This document shows, piece by piece, positions 23,771-49,700 of a stretch of DNA of 64,000 nt (positions are counted from its first letter, which is position 1; the number at the start of each line of letters is the position of its first letter). The notes below the pieces were generated by a model. The model searched no databases. It was given only the letters and a program-made list of their open reading frames with translations, and was not told the origin of the DNA. The position numbers were made by a program, and so were the translations under genes. This DNA comes from Planctomycetota bacterium (GTDB taxonomy: Bacteria > Planctomycetota > PLA2 > JAEUHO01): positions 192,001 to 256,000 of the forward strand of contig CBDCWP010000038.1 in assembly GCA_965223505.1 (NCBI GenBank), written 5' to 3'.

Positions 23771-25105
23771 CTACCCCTTCTTCGGCTTGCCGCGGTTGAT
23801 GTTCCGAAGCGCCACGTCACCCGACAAGAGATCGACCGCGCGCTGCAGCTGCGGGTCGACGTAGTCCGCCGCGACCTCGGGGAACCGCGTCTCCTGACCC
23901 CAAACGGCCTCTTCCTGGTTCACGAAGAATTGGCCGAGCATCTCGTTCTGCTTCGCCGTCAACGGAATGATCACGTCCGGGAACAACCCCGCCGGATCGC
24001 CGTTGTTGCCGCCGGAGCTCTGGTAGGAGCGACCCGACGGCGTGTAGTAGCGCGACGTCGTCAGCTTGATCGCCGCGCGCGTACCGGGGATCTCGCTGAT
24101 CTGCTGCACGAGGAACTTGCCGTAGGTGCGCGTGCCCACCAAGAGCGCGCGCCGGTGATCCTGCAGCGCCCCGGCGACGATCTCGCTCGCGCTCGCGCTG
24201 TAGCCGTTCACGAGCACGACCAGCGGCAGATCGGGGACGTCGTTGGCGTCCTTGGACGCCGAGTGCTGCTTGTTGGAGTCGCGGGCGCGCCCCTCCATGC
24301 GGACGAGCACGCCTTGCCGCAGGAAGCGGTCGGCGATTTTCAAGGCGACGTTCAGCACGCCGCCACCGTTGTGACGCAGGTCCAACACCAGGCCCTCGAT
24401 GCCGTCCTCCATCATCGACTCGACGGCGCGTCCGAAGTCGTCGACCGTCTCTTCCGCAAAGTCGGTGAGCCGCACGACGCCGAACTGTCCGTGGTCGCCG
24501 ACGCGGCGCACGTAGACCGTCGGCGGACGGATGACGCCGCGCACGACGGCCAGCTCGGTGACGGGGTTCGTGGAGGGCCCGTCCTCGGGGCGCGGTCCCT
24601 TCCGGTAGGCGATGCGCACGGTGGAGTTCGGCTCGCCCTTGAGCAGGTCGGTCACCTGGTCGAGGTCGATGCCGCCAAGAGGCACGTCGCCCGCGCGAAC
24701 GATGGTGTCGCCGACGGTCAGACCGGCGACGGCGGCGGGGCCTCCGGGCAGGACGCCGACGATCATGAGTCCCTCGTCGACCTGCTCGATCTTGATGCCG
24801 AGACCGGCGTACTTGCCTTCGATGCCTTCGCGCCACTCTTGTTGTTCGCTCGGAGGAATGAAACCGCTGTAGGGATCGAGCTCGAGGTAGGCGTCCATGG
24901 CGCGATAGAACGCCTCACGCTCTTGTTCGGAGGACAGCTCGTCCACGTAGGTCGCCGCCACCTTGCTGCGCACGTAGCCGGCGATCTCCTCGTTCCAGTA
25001 GACGCCTTCGGCGTCGGCGGCGCCGGCGCCGCGATCCACGAGCAGGAAGGCGATGGTCAGCGACGCGAGGACGCTGGCGCAGATGAGGAGCGTTCCGGGT
25101 TTCAT
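23771..25105 (-). CDS. ctpA: C-terminal processing protease, S41 family with PDZ domain
   Basis: LDPYS, GLGI PDZ, LDLRHNGGG, SASASEI, RTYGK, YYTPSGRS. Confidence 0.93.
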   Translation of the reverse strand: MKPGTLLICASVLASLTIAFLLVDRGAGAADAEGVYWNEEIAGYVRSKVAATYVDELSSEQEREAFYRAMDAYLELDPYSGFIPPSEQQEWREGIEGKYAGLGIKIEQVDEGLMIVGVLPGGPAAVAGLTVGDTIVRAGDVPLGGIDLDQVTDLLKGEPNSTVRIAYRKGPRPEDGPSTNPVTELAVVRGVIRPPTVYVRRVGDHGQFGVVRLTDFAEETVDDFGRAVESMMEDGIEGLVLDLRHNGGGVLNVALKIADRFLRQGVLVRMEGRARDSNKQHSASKDANDVPDLPLVVLVNGYSASASEIVAGALQDHRRALLVGTRTYGKFLVQQISEIPGTRAAIKLTTSRYYTPSGRSYQSSGGNNGDPAGLFPDVIIPLTAKQNEMLGQFFVNQEEAVWGQETRFPEVAADYVDPQLQRAVDLLSGDVALRNINRGKPKKG

Positions 25106-25267: not shown

Positions 25268-26398
25268 TCAATCGAAGTCGCCGCGGCCGAACTCGACGGG
25301 ATGATCCGCGCCGACGTTCAGCACCAGGCCCAGGCCGACGAAGGACGTCAGCAGGCTCGAGCCGCCGTAGGACAGGAACGGAAGCGGCATCCCCACGATC
25401 GGAAACAACCCCAATGTCATCCCCACGTTGATCAATGCCTGGCACCCGAAGAGCGTCGCGACGCCGATCGCGAGCAGCCGTCCACTCGGCTCGCGAACGC
25501 GCAAGGCGGTGCGCAACAACAACAGGATCAACAACGCGTAGATCGCGAAGAGCGCCGCGGTCCCGGTGAGACCGAACGCAGCGACGAACACCGGGAAGAT
25601 GAAGTCGGAGTGCCGCTCCGGCAGGAAGCGCACGGCTTGGTGCGTCTCTTCACCGAGCCCCGATCCGGTGAGGCTCGCCGCGCCGACCACCGTCTTGCTG
25701 TGGTGGATGTGATGTCCCTGCTTCTGCAGCAACGCCTTGTCCGCGCTCTGCTGCAACAGATACGCATGGATGCGGTTCTTCTGGTACGGCTTCAAGATGC
25801 CGGGGACGAAGTACATGGCGACGGCCGCGACGAGACCGGCGCCCGCGACGATCGCCAGATGACGGCGCCGCGCGCCCGCGACGAACAGCAGCACGAAGAG
25901 AATCGGAATCAGCAAGAGCGCCGTCCCGAGATCGGGCTGCAGCATGATCAGCATGAGCGGCAGGAACGTGAGCGCGAACGGGACGAACAGCCCCGTGAAG
26001 CGCCGGTAGCTCGACTGGTATCGAATGAAGCCGGCGAGCGTGATGACCATCACGACCTTCATGATCTCGCTCGGCTGCATGCGGAAAGAGCCGAGCTGGA
26101 TCCAACGCTTCGCGCTGCGGCCGCTGCCGGCCACGAGCACGGCCAACAGCAAGAGGATCCCGACGCCGTAGATGACGTAGCGCCACTCAACGACGCGGCG
26201 ATACGGCACCGCCAGCATCAGCAGGCACAGCACGACACCGATGACCGTCCAGCGCAGCTGGAGCCAGCCGTAGTCGACGGCCTTGCCCTGCGACGCCGCC
26301 TGCACGGTGAACACACCGATGAACGCGAGCAGCACGCCGAGCGCGAGCAGGAGCCAGTTGGCCTGCTTCAGCCGGTCACCGAGCGTGAGCTGACGCAC
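25268..26398 (-). CDS. rodA: rod shape-determining SEDS glycosyltransferase
   Basis: AKRWIQLG, QPSEIMK, QPDLGTA, LPERHSDFIF, GMPLPFLSYGGSS; follows mrdA. Confidence 0.95.
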   Translation of the reverse strand: MRQLTLGDRLKQANWLLLALGVLLAFIGVFTVQAASQGKAVDYGWLQLRWTVIGVVLCLLMLAVPYRRVVEWRYVIYGVGILLLLAVLVAGSGRSAKRWIQLGSFRMQPSEIMKVVMVITLAGFIRYQSSYRRFTGLFVPFALTFLPLMLIMLQPDLGTALLLIPILFVLLFVAGARRRHLAIVAGAGLVAAVAMYFVPGILKPYQKNRIHAYLLQQSADKALLQKQGHHIHHSKTVVGAASLTGSGLGEETHQAVRFLPERHSDFIFPVFVAAFGLTGTAALFAIYALLILLLLRTALRVREPSGRLLAIGVATLFGCQALINVGMTLGLFPIVGMPLPFLSYGGSSLLTSFVGLGLVLNVGADHPVEFGRGDFD

Positions 26399-26413: not shown

Positions 26414-29008
26414 TCATCGCCCGTACCAGTACGAGAGGATCTCGGCGACGGCGGGGACGGCGGTCTGGCCGGCGGCCGCCTCCGTTCGCGCGTGCAGGAC
26501 GCAGGCGAACGCGATCGGATTCGCGCCGCCGCCCTCGGCGAACCCGACGAACCAGTGGTGCCACGCTTCGTCCTCGTCGCCCCGCGGGCGCCAGGGGCGC
26601 CAGGTGCCGCCGACCTGGGCGGTCCCCGTCTTGCCGTAGACCCGCGCGTTCACCCCGCTCCAGTCGGCCCCGTCGGCGGTTCCGGCCCGCACGGCCAGCC
26701 GCATGCCGTCGTGAATGGGCTTCAGGTGCGAGGGACTGAGCCGCAGGTCGTGCTGGGCCCAACGGGGGGCGCCGCCGTCCACCGACATCAGGGCGTGCGG
26801 CGTGACGACGATGCCGCCGTTGGCGATCGCCGCGATCGCGCGCGCCATCTGGAGCGGCGTCGCCAGCACCGGCCCCTGACCGATCGCGACGTTGCGCCGG
26901 TCGTCGTGGCGAATGACTTTCTTGTCGTCGGTGCTGGTCCGGCCGATCTTCCGGTCGAACCGTGCGGTGAACCAGATGTGGCCGCCGCGCGCGAGCTCAC
27001 CCTCCACGCCGAACTGCCCGCCCAGCGCGGTGACGCGCCGCACGGCCTTGCGCAGCGTGTAGGGCAGGGCGGCGTACGGCGCCTTGTCGTAGCGAAGCGG
27101 CAGGCGCTGCAGCGCGTCGGCGCCGGAGAGCGCGTGCACCTCGAAGCGCAGATCGACGTACTGACCTTCGACCAGCTCGCGGGTCACGCGGACGTTGACC
27201 TGGCGCGTGCCGGTCTCGCGATGGATCTGCTGGGCGACGTCAGCGAGGGTGCGTCCCAGGACGCGCGGGTCGCCGCCGACCGTCGATGGCACGTTGCGCG
27301 CGCTGCCGACGACGATCTTCGGCGGCTTGATGCCGCGCCGCTCGAGCAGCTCGGATGCGACCGCGCCGACGCGCTCGACCGGGAAGTCGATCCAGTCGTG
27401 CAGCCACAGTCCGCGGCTCCACCCGGGCACTTCGTCGCCGGGCCGGTGCCCGATGCCCAGGCGTGACGCGAAGTCCGCTACGTAGTGCCGGTACGTGCCC
27501 CACGTCTCGTACTCGCCGAGCCCCCAGGCAAAGTAGCGGTTGCAGGAACGCGCGATCGCGCCCACCAGATCGACCGAACCGCATCCATGGCACCCCGGCG
27601 TACCGGCCGCTCCACGGCGACAAAAGTACGTGCCGATCGGGAGCGGCTCCCCGCTCGACAGCATGCCCAATCCCACGATGACCTTGAACGTGCTCCCCGG
27701 CTCCACCGGCACCTGCGCAACGCGGCTCAACCCGACGGAAACGGGCTGCGCGACGAACGCCCGCCAGGCCGACATGTCCACGCCGGGCGGCAGGTCCCCG
27801 CGCGGTGCCCACGTGCGTTCGTCTTGATCGGCAACCGCTTGCGTGAAGGCGGGCTGGTAGAGCTTGCCGAGGTCCGTGTTCGGATCGAATCGCGGCATCT
27901 CCGCCCACATCAGGATCTCGCCCGTCACCACGTCGATCGCGACGAACGCACCGGACGGGCGGCCCTTGGGGTAGTAGCCCTCGCGCGAGCCGTGCCGTTC
28001 GATGGCCTGTTCCGCGACCCGGCTCGCGTCGAGCGAGATCGAGAGACGCACCTCGAGCCCGCGCTCGGGCGGCGCCTTGTCCACGACGCGCGTGAACCAG
28101 CCGTCGCTGTCGAGCTCCAGCACCTGATGGCCGGGATAGCCGCTCAGCAACCCGTTGTAGGCGCGCTCGAGGCCGGCGCGTCCGACGCGCGTGGTCGGCG
28201 TGATCTGGCCCGGGAACCGCTCGGACAGCTGCTCGAACTCCTCCTTGTCGCGAACGACGCTGGCGTGACCGAGGAGCTGCGGCGCGAAATCGCCCTGGGG
28301 ATAGTGCCGGCGAAGCGCAGCTTGGATGCGGAACCCGCGGTAGCGTCCCACCTCGTCGAGCTCGACGAGGTGAACGACCTCGTCGCTGACGGGGCTCTCG
28401 ACGACGTAGGGCCGCCGGAGCAGGTCTTCCCGTCGCAGCTCGCGCTTGTCCTGCAGCAGGAACTCGTCGACGCCGCGCTGCGCTTCCTCCGCGACGTACG
28501 CATCGACGATCTCGTCGATCTCCTGCAGCCGCTTGCGCGCGCGCTTGTCGAGCTCGCCGGGCGGCACGCCCAGCGCCTTCTCCAGCGGCGCGAGATCGCC
28601 GAACGGCAACGGCTCGAGGGTCGCCCCGGCAACGGCCGCCCCCGCGAATCCGTCGACGCTGCGGCGCGCCGCGCGCACACACTCGCAGTCCGTACGCCGC
28701 CTCTTCTCGACGTGGTGAAAGTGGACGCTGCCGCAGGCGGTGCAGCGAACGCGGGCGCGGTGCAGCCAGTCCCAGCCGACGAAGCTGAGCTGGTGCACCG
28801 GGATGTCCTCGGCGAGGACAGCGCCGGTGCGATCCGTGATCTCGCCGCGCGGCGCCTCGAGCTTCTCCCACCGGCGCCGCATGTCGCGCGCCTCCTCGCG
28901 CCACGTCGCGCCGTCCACGACGAGCAGCTGGCCCGCGCGCAGCCAGACGGCGCCGAGCCCGAAGCAGAAGGCGAGGTAGAGGATGACGAGCTTACGCCGG
29001 TAGCGCAT
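26414..29008 (-). CDS. mrdA: class B penicillin-binding protein 2 with large insertions (864 aa)
   Basis: N-terminal TM, APRGEITDRTG, RHYPQG, GRAGLER; active-site motifs PGSTFK, SCN, GKTGT; between mreD and rodA. Confidence 0.92.
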   Translation of the reverse strand: MRYRRKLVILYLAFCFGLGAVWLRAGQLLVVDGATWREEARDMRRRWEKLEAPRGEITDRTGAVLAEDIPVHQLSFVGWDWLHRARVRCTACGSVHFHHVEKRRRTDCECVRAARRSVDGFAGAAVAGATLEPLPFGDLAPLEKALGVPPGELDKRARKRLQEIDEIVDAYVAEEAQRGVDEFLLQDKRELRREDLLRRPYVVESPVSDEVVHLVELDEVGRYRGFRIQAALRRHYPQGDFAPQLLGHASVVRDKEEFEQLSERFPGQITPTTRVGRAGLERAYNGLLSGYPGHQVLELDSDGWFTRVVDKAPPERGLEVRLSISLDASRVAEQAIERHGSREGYYPKGRPSGAFVAIDVVTGEILMWAEMPRFDPNTDLGKLYQPAFTQAVADQDERTWAPRGDLPPGVDMSAWRAFVAQPVSVGLSRVAQVPVEPGSTFKVIVGLGMLSSGEPLPIGTYFCRRGAAGTPGCHGCGSVDLVGAIARSCNRYFAWGLGEYETWGTYRHYVADFASRLGIGHRPGDEVPGWSRGLWLHDWIDFPVERVGAVASELLERRGIKPPKIVVGSARNVPSTVGGDPRVLGRTLADVAQQIHRETGTRQVNVRVTRELVEGQYVDLRFEVHALSGADALQRLPLRYDKAPYAALPYTLRKAVRRVTALGGQFGVEGELARGGHIWFTARFDRKIGRTSTDDKKVIRHDDRRNVAIGQGPVLATPLQMARAIAAIANGGIVVTPHALMSVDGGAPRWAQHDLRLSPSHLKPIHDGMRLAVRAGTADGADWSGVNARVYGKTGTAQVGGTWRPWRPRGDEDEAWHHWFVGFAEGGGANPIAFACVLHARTEAAAGQTAVPAVAEILSYWYGR

Positions 29009-29507
29009 GGCCGCCCCCCCGCCCGCAGACGTCGTCGAGCAGGCGATACCGGTCGATCAGCGCGAAGAGGCCGATCGAGAGCAGCGTCGTCCAGAGCGCG
29101 ACGGGGAACGGCTCGAGGAACGCGCCCCACGTGACGCCGCTGTCGCCGAACGGCAGGATGCGCAGCAGATACAGCCACCCGGCGATCACGGTCGCAAGGG
29201 CGGTCAGCAGCACGCGTGACGCGCCCTCCATGCGCCCGCGGTGGGTGCGGCCTTCGGCGAAGAAGAACGCGACGCACCCCAGCACGAAGCCGTGCGTCCC
29301 GAGGGGATCCAGCGAGAGGGAGTCACGCACGAGACCGATGCCGATCCCCCACGGGACCGCGTGGTACCCGCGCGAACGAAACGCGATGTAGAGAGTCGTG
29401 AGCAGCCAGAGATCCGGCGCGAAACGGTGCAGCGACAGGGCGGTGGGCATGAGGTCCGGCAGGAAGCCGGCGAGCAACATCAGAACGAAGAGGACGAGCA
29501 ACCCCAA
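28992..29507 (-). CDS. mreD: rod shape-determining protein MreD (start uncertain; out-of-frame ATG at 29514)
   Basis: Multi-TM, APDLWL, IGLVRDSLS..PLG motif; between mreC and mrdA. Confidence 0.85.
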   Translation of the reverse strand: MGLLVLFVLMLLAGFLPDLMPTALSLHRFAPDLWLLTTLYIAFRSRGYHAVPWGIGIGLVRDSLSLDPLGTHGFVLGCVAFFFAEGRTHRGRMEGASRVLLTALATVIAGWLYLLRILPFGDSGVTWGAFLEPFPVALWTTLLSIGLFALIDRYRLLDDVCGRGGGHALPA

Positions 29508-29571: not shown

Positions 29572-30399
29572 TCAGCGCTTCGACGCGTCCTCAGTATCGG
29601 ACGGCAGGAGGACGACCACCTCGACCGAGCGGTCGAGGTCGAACGCGGGCCGCACGTACAGCGTCGGCATGCGATCGAGGTCCGGATCGGTGCTCTGGGA
29701 GATCGTCCCGACGAGCAGGTTGGCGGGCACCCGCTCGTCGAAGTTCGAGGTGAACACGGCCGCCCCGACGGGAACGCTTCCCGCCCCGCGCGGCGTGCGG
29801 ACGAACTTCAGGATCAGCTGGTCTTCGCCGTCCCGCACGCCGGAGCGACGCGCGAACCCACGCAGCAAGACCTCCTTGTCGGTGCGTACGAAGACGCCCA
29901 GCCGCGAGCTCGGGTCGGTCGCGAGCTGCACGATCGAGGTCGTCGAGCGCACCTTGCGAACGCGTCCCAGGTAGACCCGCCCCATCACCACGGCATGCCC
30001 GACGCGCACGCCGTCTTCCGCGCCACGGCTGATGAGAATCGAACGCCGCCGCGGCGCCGGATCGTGCGCGCGCAGCACGCGCGCAACCAAGGCGCGCGGG
30101 CGCCGGCCTAGCTGGTCGTCAGCCAGCACGCCTTTCAGCGACTCCATCCCGCGCACGCGCTGCACGAACTGCATGTGACGCTCCCACACGTCATGCAGCT
30201 CACGTTCGAGTTCGCGCGTTCGCGTGGAGTCGCCGTCGCCCCCCTGCCTGCCCGACGGGGTGGGGATGTAACCGGCGGCGCCGTCGAAGACGCCGGAGAC
30301 CGGCGACTCGAGCGCGGGGACGCCGTCAGGCTTCAGCACCGGCAGCGCGAACAGGGCGATGAGCACCGCTCCCCATGCGTGCTGCTTGCGAAAGCGCAT
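29572..30399 (-). CDS. mreC: rod shape-determining protein MreC
   Basis: TM, short coiled coil, ARVL, ILISRGAEDGVRVGHAV, LATDP, VFTS..VPANLLVG, VRPA. Confidence 0.88.
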   Translation of the reverse strand: MRFRKQHAWGAVLIALFALPVLKPDGVPALESPVSGVFDGAAGYIPTPSGRQGGDGDSTRTRELERELHDVWERHMQFVQRVRGMESLKGVLADDQLGRRPRALVARVLRAHDPAPRRRSILISRGAEDGVRVGHAVVMGRVYLGRVRKVRSTTSIVQLATDPSSRLGVFVRTDKEVLLRGFARRSGVRDGEDQLILKFVRTPRGAGSVPVGAAVFTSNFDERVPANLLVGTISQSTDPDLDRMPTLYVRPAFDLDRSVEVVVLLPSDTEDASKR

Positions 30400-30588: not shown

Positions 30589-31641
30589 TCACTCCTCGGC
30601 CTGGTCCAGTGCGACGTGCAGGTCGCGGATCTTCTCGAGGAAGACGCCCGTCCCGCGCGCGACGGCCGTCAACGGATCTTCGGACACGCGCACCGGAAGG
30701 TTGATCTCTTCGGTGATGACGCGATCGAGCCCGCGCAAGAGCGCGCCGCCGCCCGCCATCACCACGCCGCTGTCGACGAGGTCCGCCGCCAGCTCGGGCG
30801 GTGTGCCCTCGAGCGTCGCCTTGACGGTCTCGACGATGCCCCGCACCGGTTCCTGCAGCGCTTCGCGGATCTCTTCGCTCGTCACGACGACCTTGCGTGG
30901 CAGGCCCTGCTTGAGGTCGCGGCCCTTGACGTCCATCGTCATCTCGCGCTTGAGAGGATACGCGCTGCCGATGCCGATCTTGATCTTCTCGGCCGTCTGC
31001 TCGCCGATGAGCAGATTGTAGGTGTTGCGCATGTAGTCGACGATGGCGGTGTCCATCGCGTCGCCGGCGACGCGCATCGAATGCGCCGTCACGATGCCGG
31101 CGAGCGAGATCACCGCCACCTCGGTCGTGCCGCCGCCGATGTCCACGATCATGGAGGCCTGCGGCTCGGTGATCGGCAGGCCGACGCCGATGCCGGCGGC
31201 CATGGGCTCTTCGATCAGGTAGACCTTGCGCGCGCCGGCGCGCTCCGCGGAGTTGATCACGGCGCGCTTCTCGACGGGCGTGATGCCGTACGGAATGGCG
31301 ATCACGACGCGCGGATGCACGGCCCAGGTGCGATCGTGCACCTTGTAGATGAAGTATCGGAGCATCGCCTCGGTGATCTCGAAGTCGGCGATGACGCCGT
31401 CCTTGAGCGGGCGGATCGCGACGATGTTGCCTGGCGTCTTGCCGAGCATCTCCTTCGCGGTGTCACCGACGGCGCGGCCTTCGAGGAGCACCTTGTTGGT
31501 GCCCTTCTTGACGGCGACGACGCTCGGTTCGTTGAGGATGATCCCGCGTCCCTGGACGCAGACCAGCGTGTTGGCGGTACCCAGGTCGATCCCCATGTCG
31601 ATGGAGAACTTCCCGATCAGGTATTCGAAGACCTTGGCCAT
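30589..31641 (-). CDS. mreB: rod shape-determining actin homologue MreB
   Basis: [63 protein letters not shown]. Confidence 0.98.
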
Positions 31642-44322: not shown

Positions 44323-46653
44323 TCAGCCCGCGTTGCGGCGAACGAGCTCTTCGAGCTGCCCTTGCAGGCTGGCGACGGCCGTTTCGAGTCGCACGAGCAC
44401 CTCTTCGGCGCCGTCGAGCGTGCCGCCGCGCGCCATGGCAACCAGCTCCGACGTCGCGTCGATGGCCTCGGGAATGGCGAAGTTGCCGACGGAGCCCTTC
44501 AGCGCGTGGGCGCTGCGCTCGACGGCCTCGGCGTCACCCGACGCCACGGCGTCACGAACGGCGGTCATCATCGACGGGCTGTGCTCCAGGAACAGCTTCC
44601 CGATCCGCACGACCAATCCGTGGTCGCCCAGCCGCTCGGCGAGCATCTCGGGGTCGAGCGGCGTCACCTCGGACTCGATCGGCTCGAGGCCGGCCAGTTC
44701 CTCGACCGTCGCACAGAGGAATTCCGGGTCGACGGGCTTCGGAACGTAGGCGTCCATCCCGGCGGCGAGGAACCGCTCCTTGTCGCCCTTCATGGCGTGC
44801 GCCGTCATCGCGACGATCGGGACGCGCCGGTCGCCGGGCGCCTGGCCGGCCCGAATGGCGGCCGTCGCCTCGAGGCCGTCCATGTTCGGCATCTGCACGT
44901 CCATGAGGACGACGTCGTAGTCGTGCATCCCGACGGCACCCACCGCTTGCTCGCCGTCGTCGACCACCTGCACGCGATGGCCACGCTGCCCGAGAATGCC
45001 GACGGCGAGCGCTTGATTGATGTGATTGTCCTCGGCGAGCAAGATCGAAAGCGATCGCGAAGACGTCTTGGCGTCGTCGGATGCCGCGGGCGCGTCGGCT
45101 TCCGGCGTTGCGAGCGCCTCGATCACCGCGTCGAAGAGCTCCGACTGCTTGACGGGTTTGAGCAACCGAGATCGAACGCCCAACTCCTCGCCGCGGCCGG
45201 CGAAGTGATCGTCGGCGCCCGACGTCAAGATCACCATGGGGGTGTCCGCGAAGTTGCCTTCGCGCATCCTTGCCGCGAGGTCGAGACCGTCCAGACGCGG
45301 CATCTGGTAGTCGCTGATGACCAGCGCGTACGGCGCGTCCTCCTCGAGCGCCCGTTCGAGCGCCTCGAGGCCCTCTACGCCGTCGTTCGTCACCGTCGGC
45401 TGCAGTCCCCAGCTCGACAGCACTTCGCTCAGGATCCGGCGGTTCGTGGCGTTGTCGTCGACCACGAGAACGGAGGCGCCCTTCAGCGACGCCGGCATGC
45501 TGTAGGACGAACGCGACGACGCAGCCGACGCCTCCACCGGAATCTCGAAGTGAAACGCGCTGCCTTGTCCGACGCGGCTCTCGACCCAGATGTCGCCGCG
45601 CATCAGGTGGATCAGCTGTGAGCAGATCGCGAGTCCGAGGCCGGTGCCGCCGAACCGCCGTGTGGTCGAGGCGTCCGCTTGCGAGAACGAGTCGAAGATG
45701 TGCTTGCGCTTCTCTTCGGGGATCCCGACGCCGGTGTCACGCACGGCCACGTGGAGGATGATGCCACCGGTGCCGGAAGCGCGGCTCGTCACCGTGACGA
45801 CGACCTCGCCCTCGTCGGTGAACTTCACCGCGTTGCCGACGAGATTGACGATGACCTGACGCAGTCGCACCGGATCGCCGAGAATCCCGTCGGGGACGTT
45901 GCCGTCGACGCGCAGCGCCAGCTCCAACCCCTTTGCATCGGCGCGCACGGACTGCGTGCGCACCGCGTCCCCCAGCATGTCGCGCAGCGCGAAGCCGACC
46001 GCCTCCAGCTCGAGCTTGCCGGCTTCGATCTTCGAGAAGTCGAGGATGTCGTTGAGGATCACGAGCAGCGAGTCCGCCGACGACTTCACGGCTTCGAGAT
46101 ACTGCCGTTGCTCCTTGCTGAGGTCGGTTCGCAGCGCGAGCTCTGTCATCCCGAGGATGCCGTTCATCGGCGTGCGGATCTCGTGGCTCAGATTCGCCAG
46201 GAACTCGCTCTTCGCCTTGGTCGCCGCCTCGGCCGCCTCTTTGGCCTCCTCCATCAGGATCATCGCGTGTTTCATGTCGTCGACGTTGCGGGCGACGCAA
46301 TAGAGCAGCTCCCGCTCCGGATCCGGGACGGCCGACCACGAGAGCCAGTGGTAGGTGCCGTCCTTGGCGCGATACCGGTTCTCGAAGTTGAGCGTGGGCG
46401 CGCCTTTCTGGAGCCGCCGCGCCTCGGCGATGGTCGCCTCGACGTCGGCGGGGTGAACGAGCCGGAGCCACGGCGTCGCGAGCATTTCCGCTTGCGTGTA
46501 GCCGAGCAAGCGCTCGAACGCGGGGTTCACGCGCTTGAAGTAGCCGTCCATGCCGGCGATGGCGAGCAGGTCGAGCGAGATCTCGAACAGCTTGGCGCGT
46601 GCGAACTCGAGTCGCTCGCGGCCTTCGGTCTTGGGGCGTTCGTCGTCCGACAT
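44323..46653 (-). CDS. cytoplasmic hybrid histidine kinase (PAS-HisKA-HATPase-REC-REC-HPt)
   Basis: VHPAD PAS, SHEIRTPMNG, NLVGNAVKFT, GGTGLGL, two receivers (SDYQMP, MDVQMP), AHALKGS HPt. Confidence 0.96.
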   Translation of the reverse strand: MSDDERPKTEGRERLEFARAKLFEISLDLLAIAGMDGYFKRVNPAFERLLGYTQAEMLATPWLRLVHPADVEATIAEARRLQKGAPTLNFENRYRAKDGTYHWLSWSAVPDPERELLYCVARNVDDMKHAMILMEEAKEAAEAATKAKSEFLANLSHEIRTPMNGILGMTELALRTDLSKEQRQYLEAVKSSADSLLVILNDILDFSKIEAGKLELEAVGFALRDMLGDAVRTQSVRADAKGLELALRVDGNVPDGILGDPVRLRQVIVNLVGNAVKFTDEGEVVVTVTSRASGTGGIILHVAVRDTGVGIPEEKRKHIFDSFSQADASTTRRFGGTGLGLAICSQLIHLMRGDIWVESRVGQGSAFHFEIPVEASAASSRSSYSMPASLKGASVLVVDDNATNRRILSEVLSSWGLQPTVTNDGVEGLEALERALEEDAPYALVISDYQMPRLDGLDLAARMREGNFADTPMVILTSGADDHFAGRGEELGVRSRLLKPVKQSELFDAVIEALATPEADAPAASDDAKTSSRSLSILLAEDNHINQALAVGILGQRGHRVQVVDDGEQAVGAVGMHDYDVVLMDVQMPNMDGLEATAAIRAGQAPGDRRVPIVAMTAHAMKGDKERFLAAGMDAYVPKPVDPEFLCATVEELAGLEPIESEVTPLDPEMLAERLGDHGLVVRIGKLFLEHSPSMMTAVRDAVASGDAEAVERSAHALKGSVGNFAIPEAIDATSELVAMARGGTLDGAEEVLVRLETAVASLQGQLEELVRRNAG

Positions 46654-46792
46654 GTTCTCCCCCCGGTCGCTACCGGGCGCCACAAGTCTATGAGGCCGGG
46701 CCGGTGTCGGCACGTCGCCGTGTCCCGGCCCGTTCTCCGGCGCAGCGAGCGGTAGAATCCGCGCCTCGGCCTGACTCCAATGAGGTACCCCT

Positions 46793-49700
46793 GTGCGCAG
46801 TCTCCTCCCCGCTGTCGTCCTCGTGCTCACGGCGCTCCCGCTCATCGGAAGCCCTCGGACCGCGTTCGCCGGCGACGCCCTGCAGCCGTTTCATCACACG
46901 ATCAAGGCGAAGATCGATCCGGTGACGCATCGCATCGAGATCGTGGACGAGATCCGCATCCCCGATGACCGCCTCGGAACGCCGGGCGGCTTTCGCCTGC
47001 ACGCGGGCCTCTCGGTCGACACCCTCTTCGGTTCCGACTTCAGGGTCGCGCCAAAGGACGGCGAACCGGAGGCGGGGGCGACCGGCAGCGGCGAAGAGGG
47101 AACGCAACACGCCCTACGCCTGAAGACGTGGCTGATGAGCCCGAAGGCACGGACACCGGCCGAGACCATGAAGCTGCGCCTGCGCGGGACGATCCACCAT
47201 CCGCTGCAGACGGAGAGCGAAGAATACGCGCGCAGCTTCTCGCGCACGCCCGGCACGATCAGCAAGGAGGGCGTGTTTCTCGGAGGCTCGTCGTGGTGGC
47301 TGCCGCGCTTCGGCGACGAGCTCGTCACCTACACCCTGGAGGTGACGCTGCCGGAGGGCTGGCGCTCCGTCAGCCAGGGCGCGCGCACGAGCTCGAAGAC
47401 CGCCGACGGCAAGCACGTCGATACGTGGACGTGCAAGCATCCGATGGACGAGGTCTACCTCATCGCGAGCCGCTTCCACGAGTACAGCCGCTCCGCCGGC
47501 GGCGTGCTGGCGCAGGCGTTCCTGCGTTCGCCCGACGAGAACCTCGCGAACAAGTACCTCGAGGTCACTGCCCAGTACATCGAGATGTACCGCAAGCTCA
47601 TCGGTCCGTACGCCTTCGAGAAGTTCGCGCTCATCGAGAACTTCTGGGAGACCGGATACGGCATGCCGTCGTTCACGTTGCTCGGTCCACGGGTGATCCG
47701 TTTTCCCTTCATCCTGCACTCGAGCTATCCACACGAGATCCTGCACAACTGGTGGGGCAACTCGGTCTATGTCGACTGGGATACCGGCAATTGGTGCGAG
47801 GGGCTGACGGCCTATCTCGCCGACCATCTCATCCGTGAAGGTCAGGGCCGCGGCGTCGAGTACCGGCAGGACACGCTCAAGAGCTATCGAAACTACGTCA
47901 AGGAGGGGAAGGACTTCCCGTTGACGAAGTTCCGCTCGCGCCACTCCTCGGCGACGCAAGCGGTGGGCTACGGCAAGTGCCTCATGCTCTTCCACATGCT
48001 GCGGTCGCAGCTCGGCGACGACGTCTTCCAGCGCGGGCTGCAGCAGTTCTATCGCCAGAACAAGTGGCGCCGCGCTTCGTTCGGCGACATCCACGCGGTC
48101 TTCGAGGACGTCTCCGGCCGCGAGCTCGACCTGTTCTTCCTGCAGTGGGTGAAACGCACGGGCGCGCCCGAGCTGACGCTGGGCGACGTCGTCGCGAAGG
48201 AGAACGCGATCGAGTTCGAGCTCCGGCAGGTGCAGGAGGGCGCCGCCTACCGCCTGCGGGTCCCCGTCGTGGTGACGATGGAAGCGGGAGCGCCGGCCAA
48301 GCGCGTCGTCGTCGACATGCTGGCGAAGAAGCAGGCCTTCACGATCGATGTCCCGCAACGACCGGTGCGCATCGATGTCGATCCGGAGTTCGACGTGTTC
48401 CGCCGGCTGCACCGCGCCGAGATCCCGCCCACGATGAGCCAGATGTTCGGCGCGGACAAGGTCACGCTCGTCGTGCCGGACGACGGCGATCCGGGCGCGG
48501 CGCGCTGGCGTGCGCTCACCGAGGCGTGGAGCCGCGGCGCCGACAAGGTCAGCGTGGTCAAGGCGGACGCGTTGAAGGCTCTGCCCCAGGACAGCGCGGT
48601 GTGGGTGTTGGGCGCCGGCAACCCTTGGTGCAGGGTGCTCGAGCCCGAGCTCGCGCGCCACGGCGCCGGTCTGACGGACGACAAAGCGGACTTCGGCCTG
48701 GTCGAGATCCCACGCGCGAACCACAGCTTCGTCTATGTCGTGCGGCACCCGGAGAACGCGGAGCTCGCCGTCGGGTGGATCGGATCGCCCGTCGCGGCGG
48801 CGGTCGTCGGCCTCGCGCGCAAGCTGCCGCACTACGGCAAGTACAGCTACCTCGGCTTCCAAGGCGAAGCGCCCGACAACGTCGCCAAGGGCCGCTGGCC
48901 GACGACCGGGTCGCCCTTGTCGCACCTCACGGACGCGAAGGCCGGTCCCGTTGCGCGCGGCAAGCTGCCGGCCCGCACCCCGCTTGCCCGGCTCGCGCCC
49001 GTATTCGATCCGAAGCGATTGATGGCGCACGTCGAGTGGCTCGCCGATCCGGCGCGCGAAGGACGCGGCGCGGGCACGAAGGGACTCGAAGACGCGGCGA
49101 TGTACATCGAGGCCGCGATGAAGAAGGCGGGCCTGAAGCCGGGCGGGAACGACGGCACGTTCTTCCAGACGTTCGTGGCGCCGAACGGGCCCGAGGGGAA
49201 GCCGGTGTCGTTGCGCAACGTCGTCGGCGTCATCCCGGGCTCGAACCCGGAGATGGCGAAGCAGTCCGTCGTCCTCGGCGCGCACTACGACCACCTCGGC
49301 CGCGGCTGGCCCGACAACCGCGCGGCGAAAAAGGGCGAGATCTACAACGGCGCCGACGACAACGCCTCCGGCGTCGCCGTGCTGCTCGAGCTCGCGCAGC
49401 TGCTCGGCAGGACGCACAAGCCCTCGCGCACCATGGTCTTCGTCGCGTTCACCGGGGAGGAGTGGGGCCTGAAGGGGTCCCGGCACTACGTCGAGACCAT
49501 GAAGCGCTGGCCGGCGAGGCAGGCATTGGCCATGGTCAACATGGACACCGTCGGCCGTCTCGAGGGTAAGAAGGTGCAAGTGCTCGGGTCGAACACCGCG
49601 AGCGAGTGGCGGCACATCGCGATGGGCGTCGGGTTCACGACCGGCGTCGAGTCCGACTGCATCGCCGACGATCCCGGCGGCTCGGACCAGCAGAGCTTCG

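Follow-up and report, generated by a model that had tools for sequence, protein, structure and literature searches.

The mrdA gene of a Planctomycetota bacterium (assembly GCA_965223505.1), found within a stretch of 64,000 nucleotides of contig CBDCWP010000038.1 (positions 192,001 to 256,000 of the forward strand; this whole stretch is referred to here as the window), encodes a class B penicillin-binding protein (PBP), PBP2, whose transpeptidase domain carries an additional domain that solved PBP2 structures do not have. This insert descends from the catalytic and ATP-binding (CA) domain, a HATPase_c domain of the Bergerat fold, of a GacS/RetS-like hybrid histidine kinase. Class B PBPs and the CA domains of histidine kinases are among the best-studied bacterial enzymes and folds, respectively. 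A preliminary description of the window, made from its sequence, had proposed that a degenerate histidine-kinase ATPase domain was captured within the transpeptidase domain of this protein, and profile searches, the predicted structure and a count of conserved motifs all support the proposal. We consider it very probable that the insert is both derived from a kinase CA domain and dead with respect to ATP.

Position and limits of the insert

Between the SCN motif and the NVAIGQG motif (residues 706-712) of PBP2, the preliminary description had counted about 147 extra residues, 541-687. Window positions 26948-27388 of the minus strand do encode residues 541-687 of the 864-residue open reading frame (ORF), the strings quoted there are present, and the solved PBP2s have no counterpart for residues ~536-705. 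The extra stretch is therefore real, but its limits had been drawn too narrowly, and comparison with PBP2s of the same bacterial family that have no insert widened them to ~537-697 (Table 1). In the alignment with the PBP2 of Thermus thermophilus (6pl5), residues 428-528 of the query correspond to 299-402 and residues 705-863 to 428-574, and the alignment with the PBP2 of Acinetobacter baumannii skips from 396 to 414 at the site of the insert. The native flanks can be recognised by the motifs 'RGxWL', which runs to residue 536, and 'IRxDDGRNVAIGQG', which starts at ~698. In the insert-less PBP2s of one genus of the family, g6, 'RGRWL' is followed by 12 residues and then by 'IPRDSGRMVAIGQG', and the loop is even shorter in another, g9. 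Counted between the flanking anchors, 174-199 residues are present in the 22 insert-bearing rows of the alignment and 28-39 in the 8 insert-less rows; the insert thus has ~160 residues where insert-less relatives have ~12, with a net gain of ~150.

The insert appears to have been placed at the tip of a pre-existing surface hairpin between the SxN and IGQG motifs, as judged from the predicted structures. In the AlphaFold2 (AF2) model of the insert, a beta bridge joins the two flanks at the foot of the domain, and in the full-length model the linkers have a predicted local distance difference test score (pLDDT) of ~90, which we read as a fixed attachment.

Homology to the CA domains of hybrid histidine kinases

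The homology is found over the whole domain. Against the PDB, a profile built here from an alignment of 16 PBP inserts matched GacS (7z8n, E 2.7e-7), RetS (6dk8 and 6dk7, 1.1e-6) and 7n0e (1.8e-6), and with weaker scores ShkA (6qrj, 1.4e-3) and ETR1 (4pl9, 6.6e-3). Against 1.84e9 representative proteins it returned 17,877 matches at E<=1e-3, 132 of them at E<=1e-10, with hybrid kinases among the matches at E ~1e-15 to 1e-10. Twenty-one of the best 150 matches were scanned with Pfam, and they comprised 9 PBPs and 12 hybrid kinases of the HisKA-HATPase_c-REC(-Hpt) architecture. A profile check of the kind suggested in the preliminary description thus recovers GHKL proteins both in the PDB and in the wider protein space.

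Independent of the profile of inserts, a search of 5.8e9 proteins with the region returned 15 insert-bearing relatives of PBP2 together with two hybrid kinases (E 3.7e-5 and 5.3e-4). Direct comparison of the insert with these two kinases by BLASTP gave E values of 4e-13 and 6e-12, with 30-31% identity over 141-163 residues, and the alignments span the CA domain from the strand after the dimerization and histidine phosphotransfer (DHp) helix through the last strand.

The window itself encodes a hybrid histidine kinase, to which the insert had been aligned by eye in the preliminary description. This alignment is significant when the insert profile is used (E 4e-6, at G000:C38:237736-238023), but not by plain BLASTP, which aligned 38 residues with an E of 0.078. 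The profile matches four kinase-sized ORFs in the bacterium's own genome, this kinase being one of them. By the appearance of its sequence, the kinase comprises PAS-HisKA-HATPase_c, two receiver-like regions and an Hpt domain. It is no closer to the insert than kinases found elsewhere, with 28 bits as compared with up to 74 bits in the global search.

One further observation concerns the upstream junction. The native flank 'aGxWL' (27401-27421) resembles the 'eAGkL' that closes DHp helix 2 in kinases, and the profile alignments to kinases begin at this point; the likeness could be due to chance or to microhomology at an old recombination junction.

Predicted fold of the insert

The AF2 model of the insert has a pLDDT of 90.0 and a predicted template modelling score (pTM) of 0.85, and its strands and helices follow one another as in a CA domain. 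Searching with this model, Foldseek returned 336 matches at E<=1e-3, led by GacS (3.7e-9), ETR1 and RetS, and VIA-align, run against 48,161 chains, superposed 149 residues of the predicted model on GacS with a Z-score of 16.2 and a root-mean-square deviation of 3.4. All 50 rows listed by VIA-align are histidine-kinase, PDK/BCK or other GHKL ATP-binding domains, and no sub-domain of a PBP is present among these 50 top structural matches, which argues against the insert being an already described PBP module. Structural comparison, another check proposed at the outset, therefore points the same way as the profiles, with GacS on top in both searches, and the insert is predicted to be a Bergerat alpha/beta sandwich. 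A prediction of the complex between the transpeptidase domain, given as two chains, and the insert gave no answer (a score of 0.00 in two runs, made without controls), and speaks neither for nor against packing of the two.

Loss of the ATP-binding motifs

Conservation of the nucleotide-binding motifs was counted in a combined alignment of 25 PBP inserts and 10 kinase CA domains. In histidine kinases the Asn of the N-box holds Mg-ATP and the Asp of the G1 box contacts the adenine. All 10 kinases have the N-box Asn and none of the 25 inserts does, its position in PBP2 being taken by Gln594, and the Asp of the G1 box (DxGxG) shows the same distribution, 10 of 10 as compared with 0 of 25. The G2 box, which reads GGTGLGLAI in kinases, falls into gap columns in 24-25 of the 25 inserts, and the ATP lid is shortened. 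The loss of the N-box Asn, of the DxG box and of the GxGLG lid, as originally noted, is thus confirmed in every copy or nearly so. Retained in the same alignment are the beginning of the N-box helix ('GGDP..L') and the final strand ('RGGxVWFTARF').

The inserts also share conserved features of their own. These are the Pro of an 'LP' motif (P649), a 'FDRxxGR' motif at the exit, in which R690 is invariant among 16 sequences, and a frequent Trp in the remnant of the lid.

Class B PBPs have a bitopic topology. Since PBP2 has one hydrophobic helix at its N-terminus, as class B PBPs do, the protein beyond this single anchor, including the insert, would be located in the periplasm. As the motifs are lost and this presumed location is without ATP, we infer that the insert no longer binds ATP and is a pseudo-ATPase domain.

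Distribution and history of the insert

A search for MrdA homologues with the same insert found it at the same site in 25 proteins, in which it is of full length (segments of 161-186 residues) and in frame, with identities down to 28%. No truncated or decayed insert was seen among these 25 copies. Scanning genome contigs with full-length alignments gave ten full-length insert-bearing loci with 41-50% identity, all in metagenome-assembled genomes (MAGs) of Planctomycetota.

We also screened 401 sampled genomes of the phylum, scoring 8 candidates per genome, with the insert profile at E<=1e-18. Matches were obtained solely in the GTDB family of the window, in 8 of 16 genomes in addition to the window's own, and the insert was not found in the 384 genomes outside the family; as the screen also missed both insert-bearing genomes of the diverged genus g8, this does not imply absence. 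Within the family, 11 of 17 genomes have the insert, 5 are without it and in one the gene is cut at a contig end. The two genomes of genus g8 have a more diverged insert, whereas genera g6 (2 genomes) and g9 (3 genomes) are without it, and it is absent from two genomes of a sister family and from one Phycisphaerales locus.

When the insert columns were left out of tree building, the backbone was not resolved, 10 of the 27 inner branches staying open, and 2 changes are required on the best tree. A single insert-bearing clade was not rejected by the approximately unbiased (AU) test (p 0.478). Because the outgroups are without the insert, one insertion event in the ancestor of part of the family would be the simplest history, although the tree leaves gain versus loss unsettled.

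The PBP2 gene and its neighbourhood

The mrdA product matches PF00905 (Transpeptidase, 4.3e-34) and PF03717 (PBP_dimer, the pedestal, 7.5e-20), both above their cut-offs, and the PF00905 match comes in two stretches with the insert between them. The equivalog model for this protein, NCBIfam TIGR03423 (pbp2_mrdA), is matched in three stretches with 258.8 bits (1e-76), which is below its cut-off of 455 bits; the low score goes with the presence of two insertions and with divergence. The other class B PBP of the genome, from the dcw cluster of division and cell-wall genes, likewise stays under this cut-off, with 229 bits. The AF2 model of full-length PBP2 has a pLDDT of 87.8 and a pTM of 0.83, and its top Foldseek matches are the PBP2s of T. 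thermophilus, Yersinia pestis and Escherichia coli, with template modelling (TM) scores, normalised by the target, of 0.72-0.75 (for the predicted model against 6pl5_B, E 1e-28 and 0.72; against 6g9f, 0.75). The three catalytic motifs SxxK, SxN and KTG, described earlier as intact, are all found and are invariant across 16 sequences (Table 1).

The genes mreB-mreC-mreD-mrdA-rodA lie in this order on the minus strand, and the order is kept in all 7 distinct insert-bearing loci that were compared (8 locus identifiers, of which L010 and L037 belong to one genome). Apart from mrdA, the bacterium's genome, which is 92% complete, has a single further PF00905 locus, encoding a class B PBP of 621 residues within the dcw cluster rsmH-bPBP-murE-murF-mraY. 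On the grounds of the PBP2 matches, of the operon with the mre genes and rodA, and of the location of the sole other class B PBP in the dcw cluster, the mrdA product is the PBP2 of the elongasome and apparently the only one in the genome. The GT51 glycosyltransferase domain (PF00912) has no match in this 92%-complete genome, so that no class A PBP is seen. Given the lack of GT51 matches and the presence of two class B PBPs, polymerisation of peptidoglycan would rest on shape, elongation, division and sporulation (SEDS) proteins alone.

An S41 peptidase gene is found 3' of rodA in 5 of the 6 insert-bearing loci with full flanks (the exception is L009) and also in the insert-less locus L040; its product may be a protease linked to the elongasome. 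The insert-less PBP2 of L040 (G217:C36) is itself read in two frames, with its N-terminal part in a frame that runs into rodA and the rest in another, which is either a frameshift or an assembly error.

Table 1. Features of the mrdA locus and of the encoded PBP2, with their coordinates in the window.
Feature	PBP2 residues	Window position	Strand	Basis
mreB		30595..31638	minus	NF010539, 5e-151
mreC		29572..30399	minus	MreC models, 7e-15, below their cut-offs; synteny conserved
mreD		28992..29507	minus	TIGR03426, 2e-12, above cut-off
mrdA, class B PBP2, 864 aa		26414..29008	minus	ORF and translation, Pfam, NCBIfam, AF2 model
N-terminal hydrophobic helix, presumed membrane anchor	7-26	28931..28990	minus	Sequence; helix 2-43 in the model
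Second insertion, pedestal head	~86-196	28421..28753	minus	Conserved Cys columns, secondary structure of the model
SxxK, catalytic serine motif STFK	439-442	27683..27694	minus	S439 and K442 invariant, 16 sequences
SxN, SCN	488-490	27539..27547	minus	Invariant, 16 sequences
Upstream flank WSRGLWL, native PBP2	530-536	27401..27421	minus	Insert-less genus g6 reads 'RGRWL'
Kinase CA-like insert, predicted Bergerat-fold pseudo-ATPase	537-697	26918..27400	minus	Profile, AF2 model, Foldseek, VIA-align
N-box remnant LADVAQQIHRET, Mg-ATP Asn position is Q594	588-599	27212..27247	minus	Combined alignment
G1-box remnant EVHALSGAD	623-631	27116..27142	minus	Combined alignment
'LP' motif, start of helix after shortened lid, G2 box deleted here	648-652	27053..27067	minus	P649 invariant
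Retained G3-like last strand and exit, ARGGHIWFTARFDRKIGR	673-690	26939..26992	minus	Aligns with kinase 'GxGSTFWFTARF'
Downstream flank VIRHDDRR and NVAIGQG, native PBP2	698-712	26873..26917	minus	Aligns with 'IPRDSGRMVAIGQG' of insert-less relatives
KTG(T), KTGT	793-796	26621..26632	minus	KTG invariant, 16 sequences
rodA, SEDS glycosyltransferase partner		25268..26398	minus	TIGR02210, 6e-95, just below cut-off 336.7; NF037961 above cut-off
S41 C-terminal processing peptidase, after rodA		23771..25105	minus	TIGR00225, 8e-75
CA-domain start of own hybrid histidine kinase		45736..46023	minus	Insert profile, E 4e-6; ORF 44323-46890

A second insertion and a Cys/His cluster in PBP2

PBP2 carries a second insertion, located in the head of the pedestal, where query residues 86-228 are matched by just residues 85-128 of 6pl5. 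It contains four conserved cysteines, C89, C92, C108 and C110, in a CxxC...CxC pattern that may be zinc-ribbon-like or may form two disulfides, followed in the AF2 model by a helical hairpin (H152-177 and H182-198). Relatives without the kinase-like insert have the head insertion too, so it is older than the insert and independent of it.

In residues 462-490 (window 27539-27625, minus strand), C463, C473, H474 and C489, the last being the X of SCN, are invariant. The active-site Zn2+ motif described for Clostridioides difficile PBP2, PBP3 and SpoVD is made up of a His, the SxN Cys and two further residues that are Cys or Asp (PMC9334274); the residue types in our PBP2 are the same, and the spacing differs. 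The loop 467-472 is the sole segment of the full-length model with a pLDDT below 50. The PBP2 of T. thermophilus likewise combines SCN with a Cys upstream of it, and a phmmer search of the PDB with residues 425-535 gave 6pl5 as the sole match, C. difficile PBP2 not being returned.

Conservation, selection and the possible role of the insert

In light of these data, we regard it as reasonably probable that the best overall explanation is a kinase-derived, ATP-dead insert that serves the PBP2 of the elongasome as a docking or regulatory module. For the role taken by itself, our preference for docking or regulation over steric gating, ligand sensing or no role at all is tentative, as it is drawn from analogy with two domains of class A PBPs, ODD and UB2H, and with degenerate kinase domains such as that of RetS. 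The insert would be an accessory module that works without ATP, carried on the transpeptidase domain by a stalk of two strands, and may offer a docking or regulatory surface to a lineage-specific periplasmic partner or to a glycan substrate. In bacteria without class A PBPs such control would act on RodA-PBP2, and here it would have to, because the bacterium's own genome shows no class A PBP. A more specific version, in which the insert is an exapted extracytoplasmic receptor domain, free of ATP, that docks a periplasmic RodA-PBP2 regulator particular to the lineage, in bacteria without class A PBPs and hence without Lpo-type control, is possible but rather unlikely as it stands; if true, it would provide the first case of a GHKL fold at work outside the cytoplasm.

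Several results weigh against this explanation. Five genomes of the same family have a PBP2 without the insert, and therefore PBP2 can do without it. No gene specific to insert-bearers, which would be a candidate partner, was found in the synteny comparison of the loci. The insert is the least conserved and the fastest-evolving part of PBP2, with a mean pairwise identity of 31%, as compared with 38% for the head insertion, 49% for the pedestal and 51% for the transpeptidase core. Over six pairs, the insert exceeds the remainder of PBP2 in its rate of non-synonymous change (dN) by a factor of 1.4-2.2. Its ratio of non-synonymous to synonymous change (dN/dS) lies at 0.52-0.70 for the four closest pairs and at 0.81-0.89 for the two most distant pairs, whereas the remainder of PBP2 has 0.33-0.63 throughout the six; these ratios are rough, since dS is 0.58-0.97 and thus near saturation. 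The HATPase_c model of Pfam (PF02518) matched none of 16 inserts even at E<=10, and single-model Pfam and NCBIfam scans are too insensitive for this insert. The position of the insert relative to the active site is suggested by the order of the sequence and by known structures. Further limits are that these bacteria have not been cultured, that the insert changes rapidly and that its role is proposed by analogy. In the Pfam and NCBIfam scans of the insert alone, TGS (0.016) and dehydroquinase (0.064) appeared as matches at chance level and were rejected.

The divergence of the insert is a point in favour of a tolerated passenger, that is, a fragment of a kinase gene that landed in a permissive surface hairpin of PBP2, folds on its own and has little or no function. 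The low identity relative to the transpeptidase core and the up to 2.2-fold higher dN would be expected from such a passenger, and the sister genera g6 and g9 are without the insert. Moreover, the two short insert-less loci whose neighbourhoods could be compared, L039 (mreD-mrdA-rodA) and L040 (mrdA-rodA-S41), have the same neighbouring genes and show no difference from the others. However, all 25 copies are in frame and of full length in spite of a divergence to 28% identity, with no truncated or decayed copy among them, the fold is confidently predicted from the insert sequences, the columns conserved in addition to those of kinases (the LP motif, FDRxxGR and the Trp of the lid remnant) have been maintained, and dN/dS is below 1 in all six pairs. 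Because all 25 copies are of full length and their fold is confidently predicted, we read the insert as a surface domain under relaxed yet real purifying selection. We consider a mere passenger unlikely.

If the insert is functional, it could also act as a steric gate or shield, a domain beside the transpeptidase cleft that decides which stem peptides, donor or acceptor, or which beta-lactams can enter, and needs no protein partner. The motif equivalent to NVAIGQG lines the active site in solved class B PBPs, the insert ends 8 residues ahead of it, and the linkers are short and confidently predicted within a full-length model of pTM 0.83. Against this, the catalytic motifs are the same in insert-less relatives, with no compensating change evident, and the high turnover of the insert sequence suits a precise gate poorly, so that gating appears less likely still than a passenger. 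That the remnant of the nucleotide pocket binds a small periplasmic molecule, such as a muropeptide or a nucleotide-like compound, and tunes crosslinking is improbable; conservation of the Bergerat sandwich and of the VGGDP that opens the N-box helix would suit a ligand sensor, but all three nucleotide-contacting boxes are gone, the lid is shortened and region 630-640, around the former nucleotide pocket, has the lowest confidence of the insert (pLDDT ~65 in the full-length model).

An artefact, in which a chimeric assembly or a frame error joined a kinase fragment to a PBP gene, has nothing in its favour but the odd architecture and can be dismissed for practical purposes, as the insertion recurs at one site in the 25 proteins from JGI, ENA, NCBI and Logan sources, 10 MAG loci of different projects and 11 genomes of the family carry it, the reading frame is unbroken and the GC content across the junctions is even (0.70-0.73). 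Logan contigs of two sequencing runs also contain a whole 1001-bp stretch with zero differences, though possibly from the source sample and so not as independent support, and a run of a second sample, which may belong to the source study, bridges the downstream junction of the insert.

As a docking or regulatory module, the insert would imply that a nucleotide-binding signalling fold can be reused for purely structural purposes or for interactions where ATP is lacking. Its place in the transpeptidase domain is a site permissive for insertion, and the presence and absence of the insert inside one bacterial family provide a natural contrast for how accessory domains tune the RodA-PBP2 synthase. 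Annotation by Pfam is blind to it, the precomputed Pfam annotation of all relatives consisting of just PF03717 and PF00905.

Comparison with known systems

Full-text literature searches, judged mainly from the openings of abstracts, found no description of a kinase-like domain in a PBP. The protein shares with canonical PBP2/MrdA (6pl5, 6g9f and 7zg8) the pedestal and transpeptidase folds, the catalytic motifs SxxK, SxN and KTG, and an operon that includes rodA and mreBCD, but has ~260 extra residues in two insertions and a score for the equivalog model that is below the cut-off.

Enlargement of a class B PBP has a precedent in C. difficile PBP2 (7rcw), a protein of 111 kDa with extra regions (PMC9334274). 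Lineage-specific insertions enlarge this PBP2 as well, one of them within the transpeptidase domain (a 'coiled-coil stretch' between beta3 and beta4), and its N-terminal domain contains a cluster of helices; the X of its SxN is a Cys, with a His and acidic or Cys ligands nearby (PMC9334274). These insertions differ from ours in that they are helical, occupy different sites and are without known homology, none being kinase-like (PMC9334274).

With regard to the proposed role, the nearest analogues among peptidoglycan synthases are found in E. coli. The ODD domain within the transpeptidase domain of PBP1A docks LpoA, and the UB2H domain of PBP1B docks LpoB. Like the insert, both are non-catalytic domains spliced into a peptidoglycan synthase; unlike it, they belong to class A PBPs, have other folds and insertion sites, and act with a known partner, whereas synteny offers no insert-specific candidate for the PBP2 insert.

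The hybrid-kinase CA domains of GacS (7z8n), RetS (6dk7 and 6dk8) and ShkA (6qrj) are related to the insert by sequence over the whole domain, and have in common with it the Bergerat alpha/beta sandwich (Z 12-16) and the 'GDPxxL' and 'GxxxWFTxxF' motifs. Kinases bind ATP, whereas the insert is without the N-box Asn, the G1 Asp and the G2 box and has a shortened lid. It is also not accompanied by a HisKA/DHp, receiver or Hpt domain, and it resides inside a PBP, presumably in the periplasm. It may also be compared with the degenerate kinase domains of RetS and DivL (4q20), which have kinase-type CA folds and are both among the structural matches of the insert. RetS and DivL can do without catalytic function or have lost it, and they work by contacts with other proteins. 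These domains are cytoplasmic, attached to a DHp domain and part of phosphorelay networks, while the insert has no DHp domain and is carried by a cell-wall enzyme. What is new here is, on the one hand, the accessory domain of a class B PBP and, on the other, a GHKL fold in a new place and with a proposed new role.

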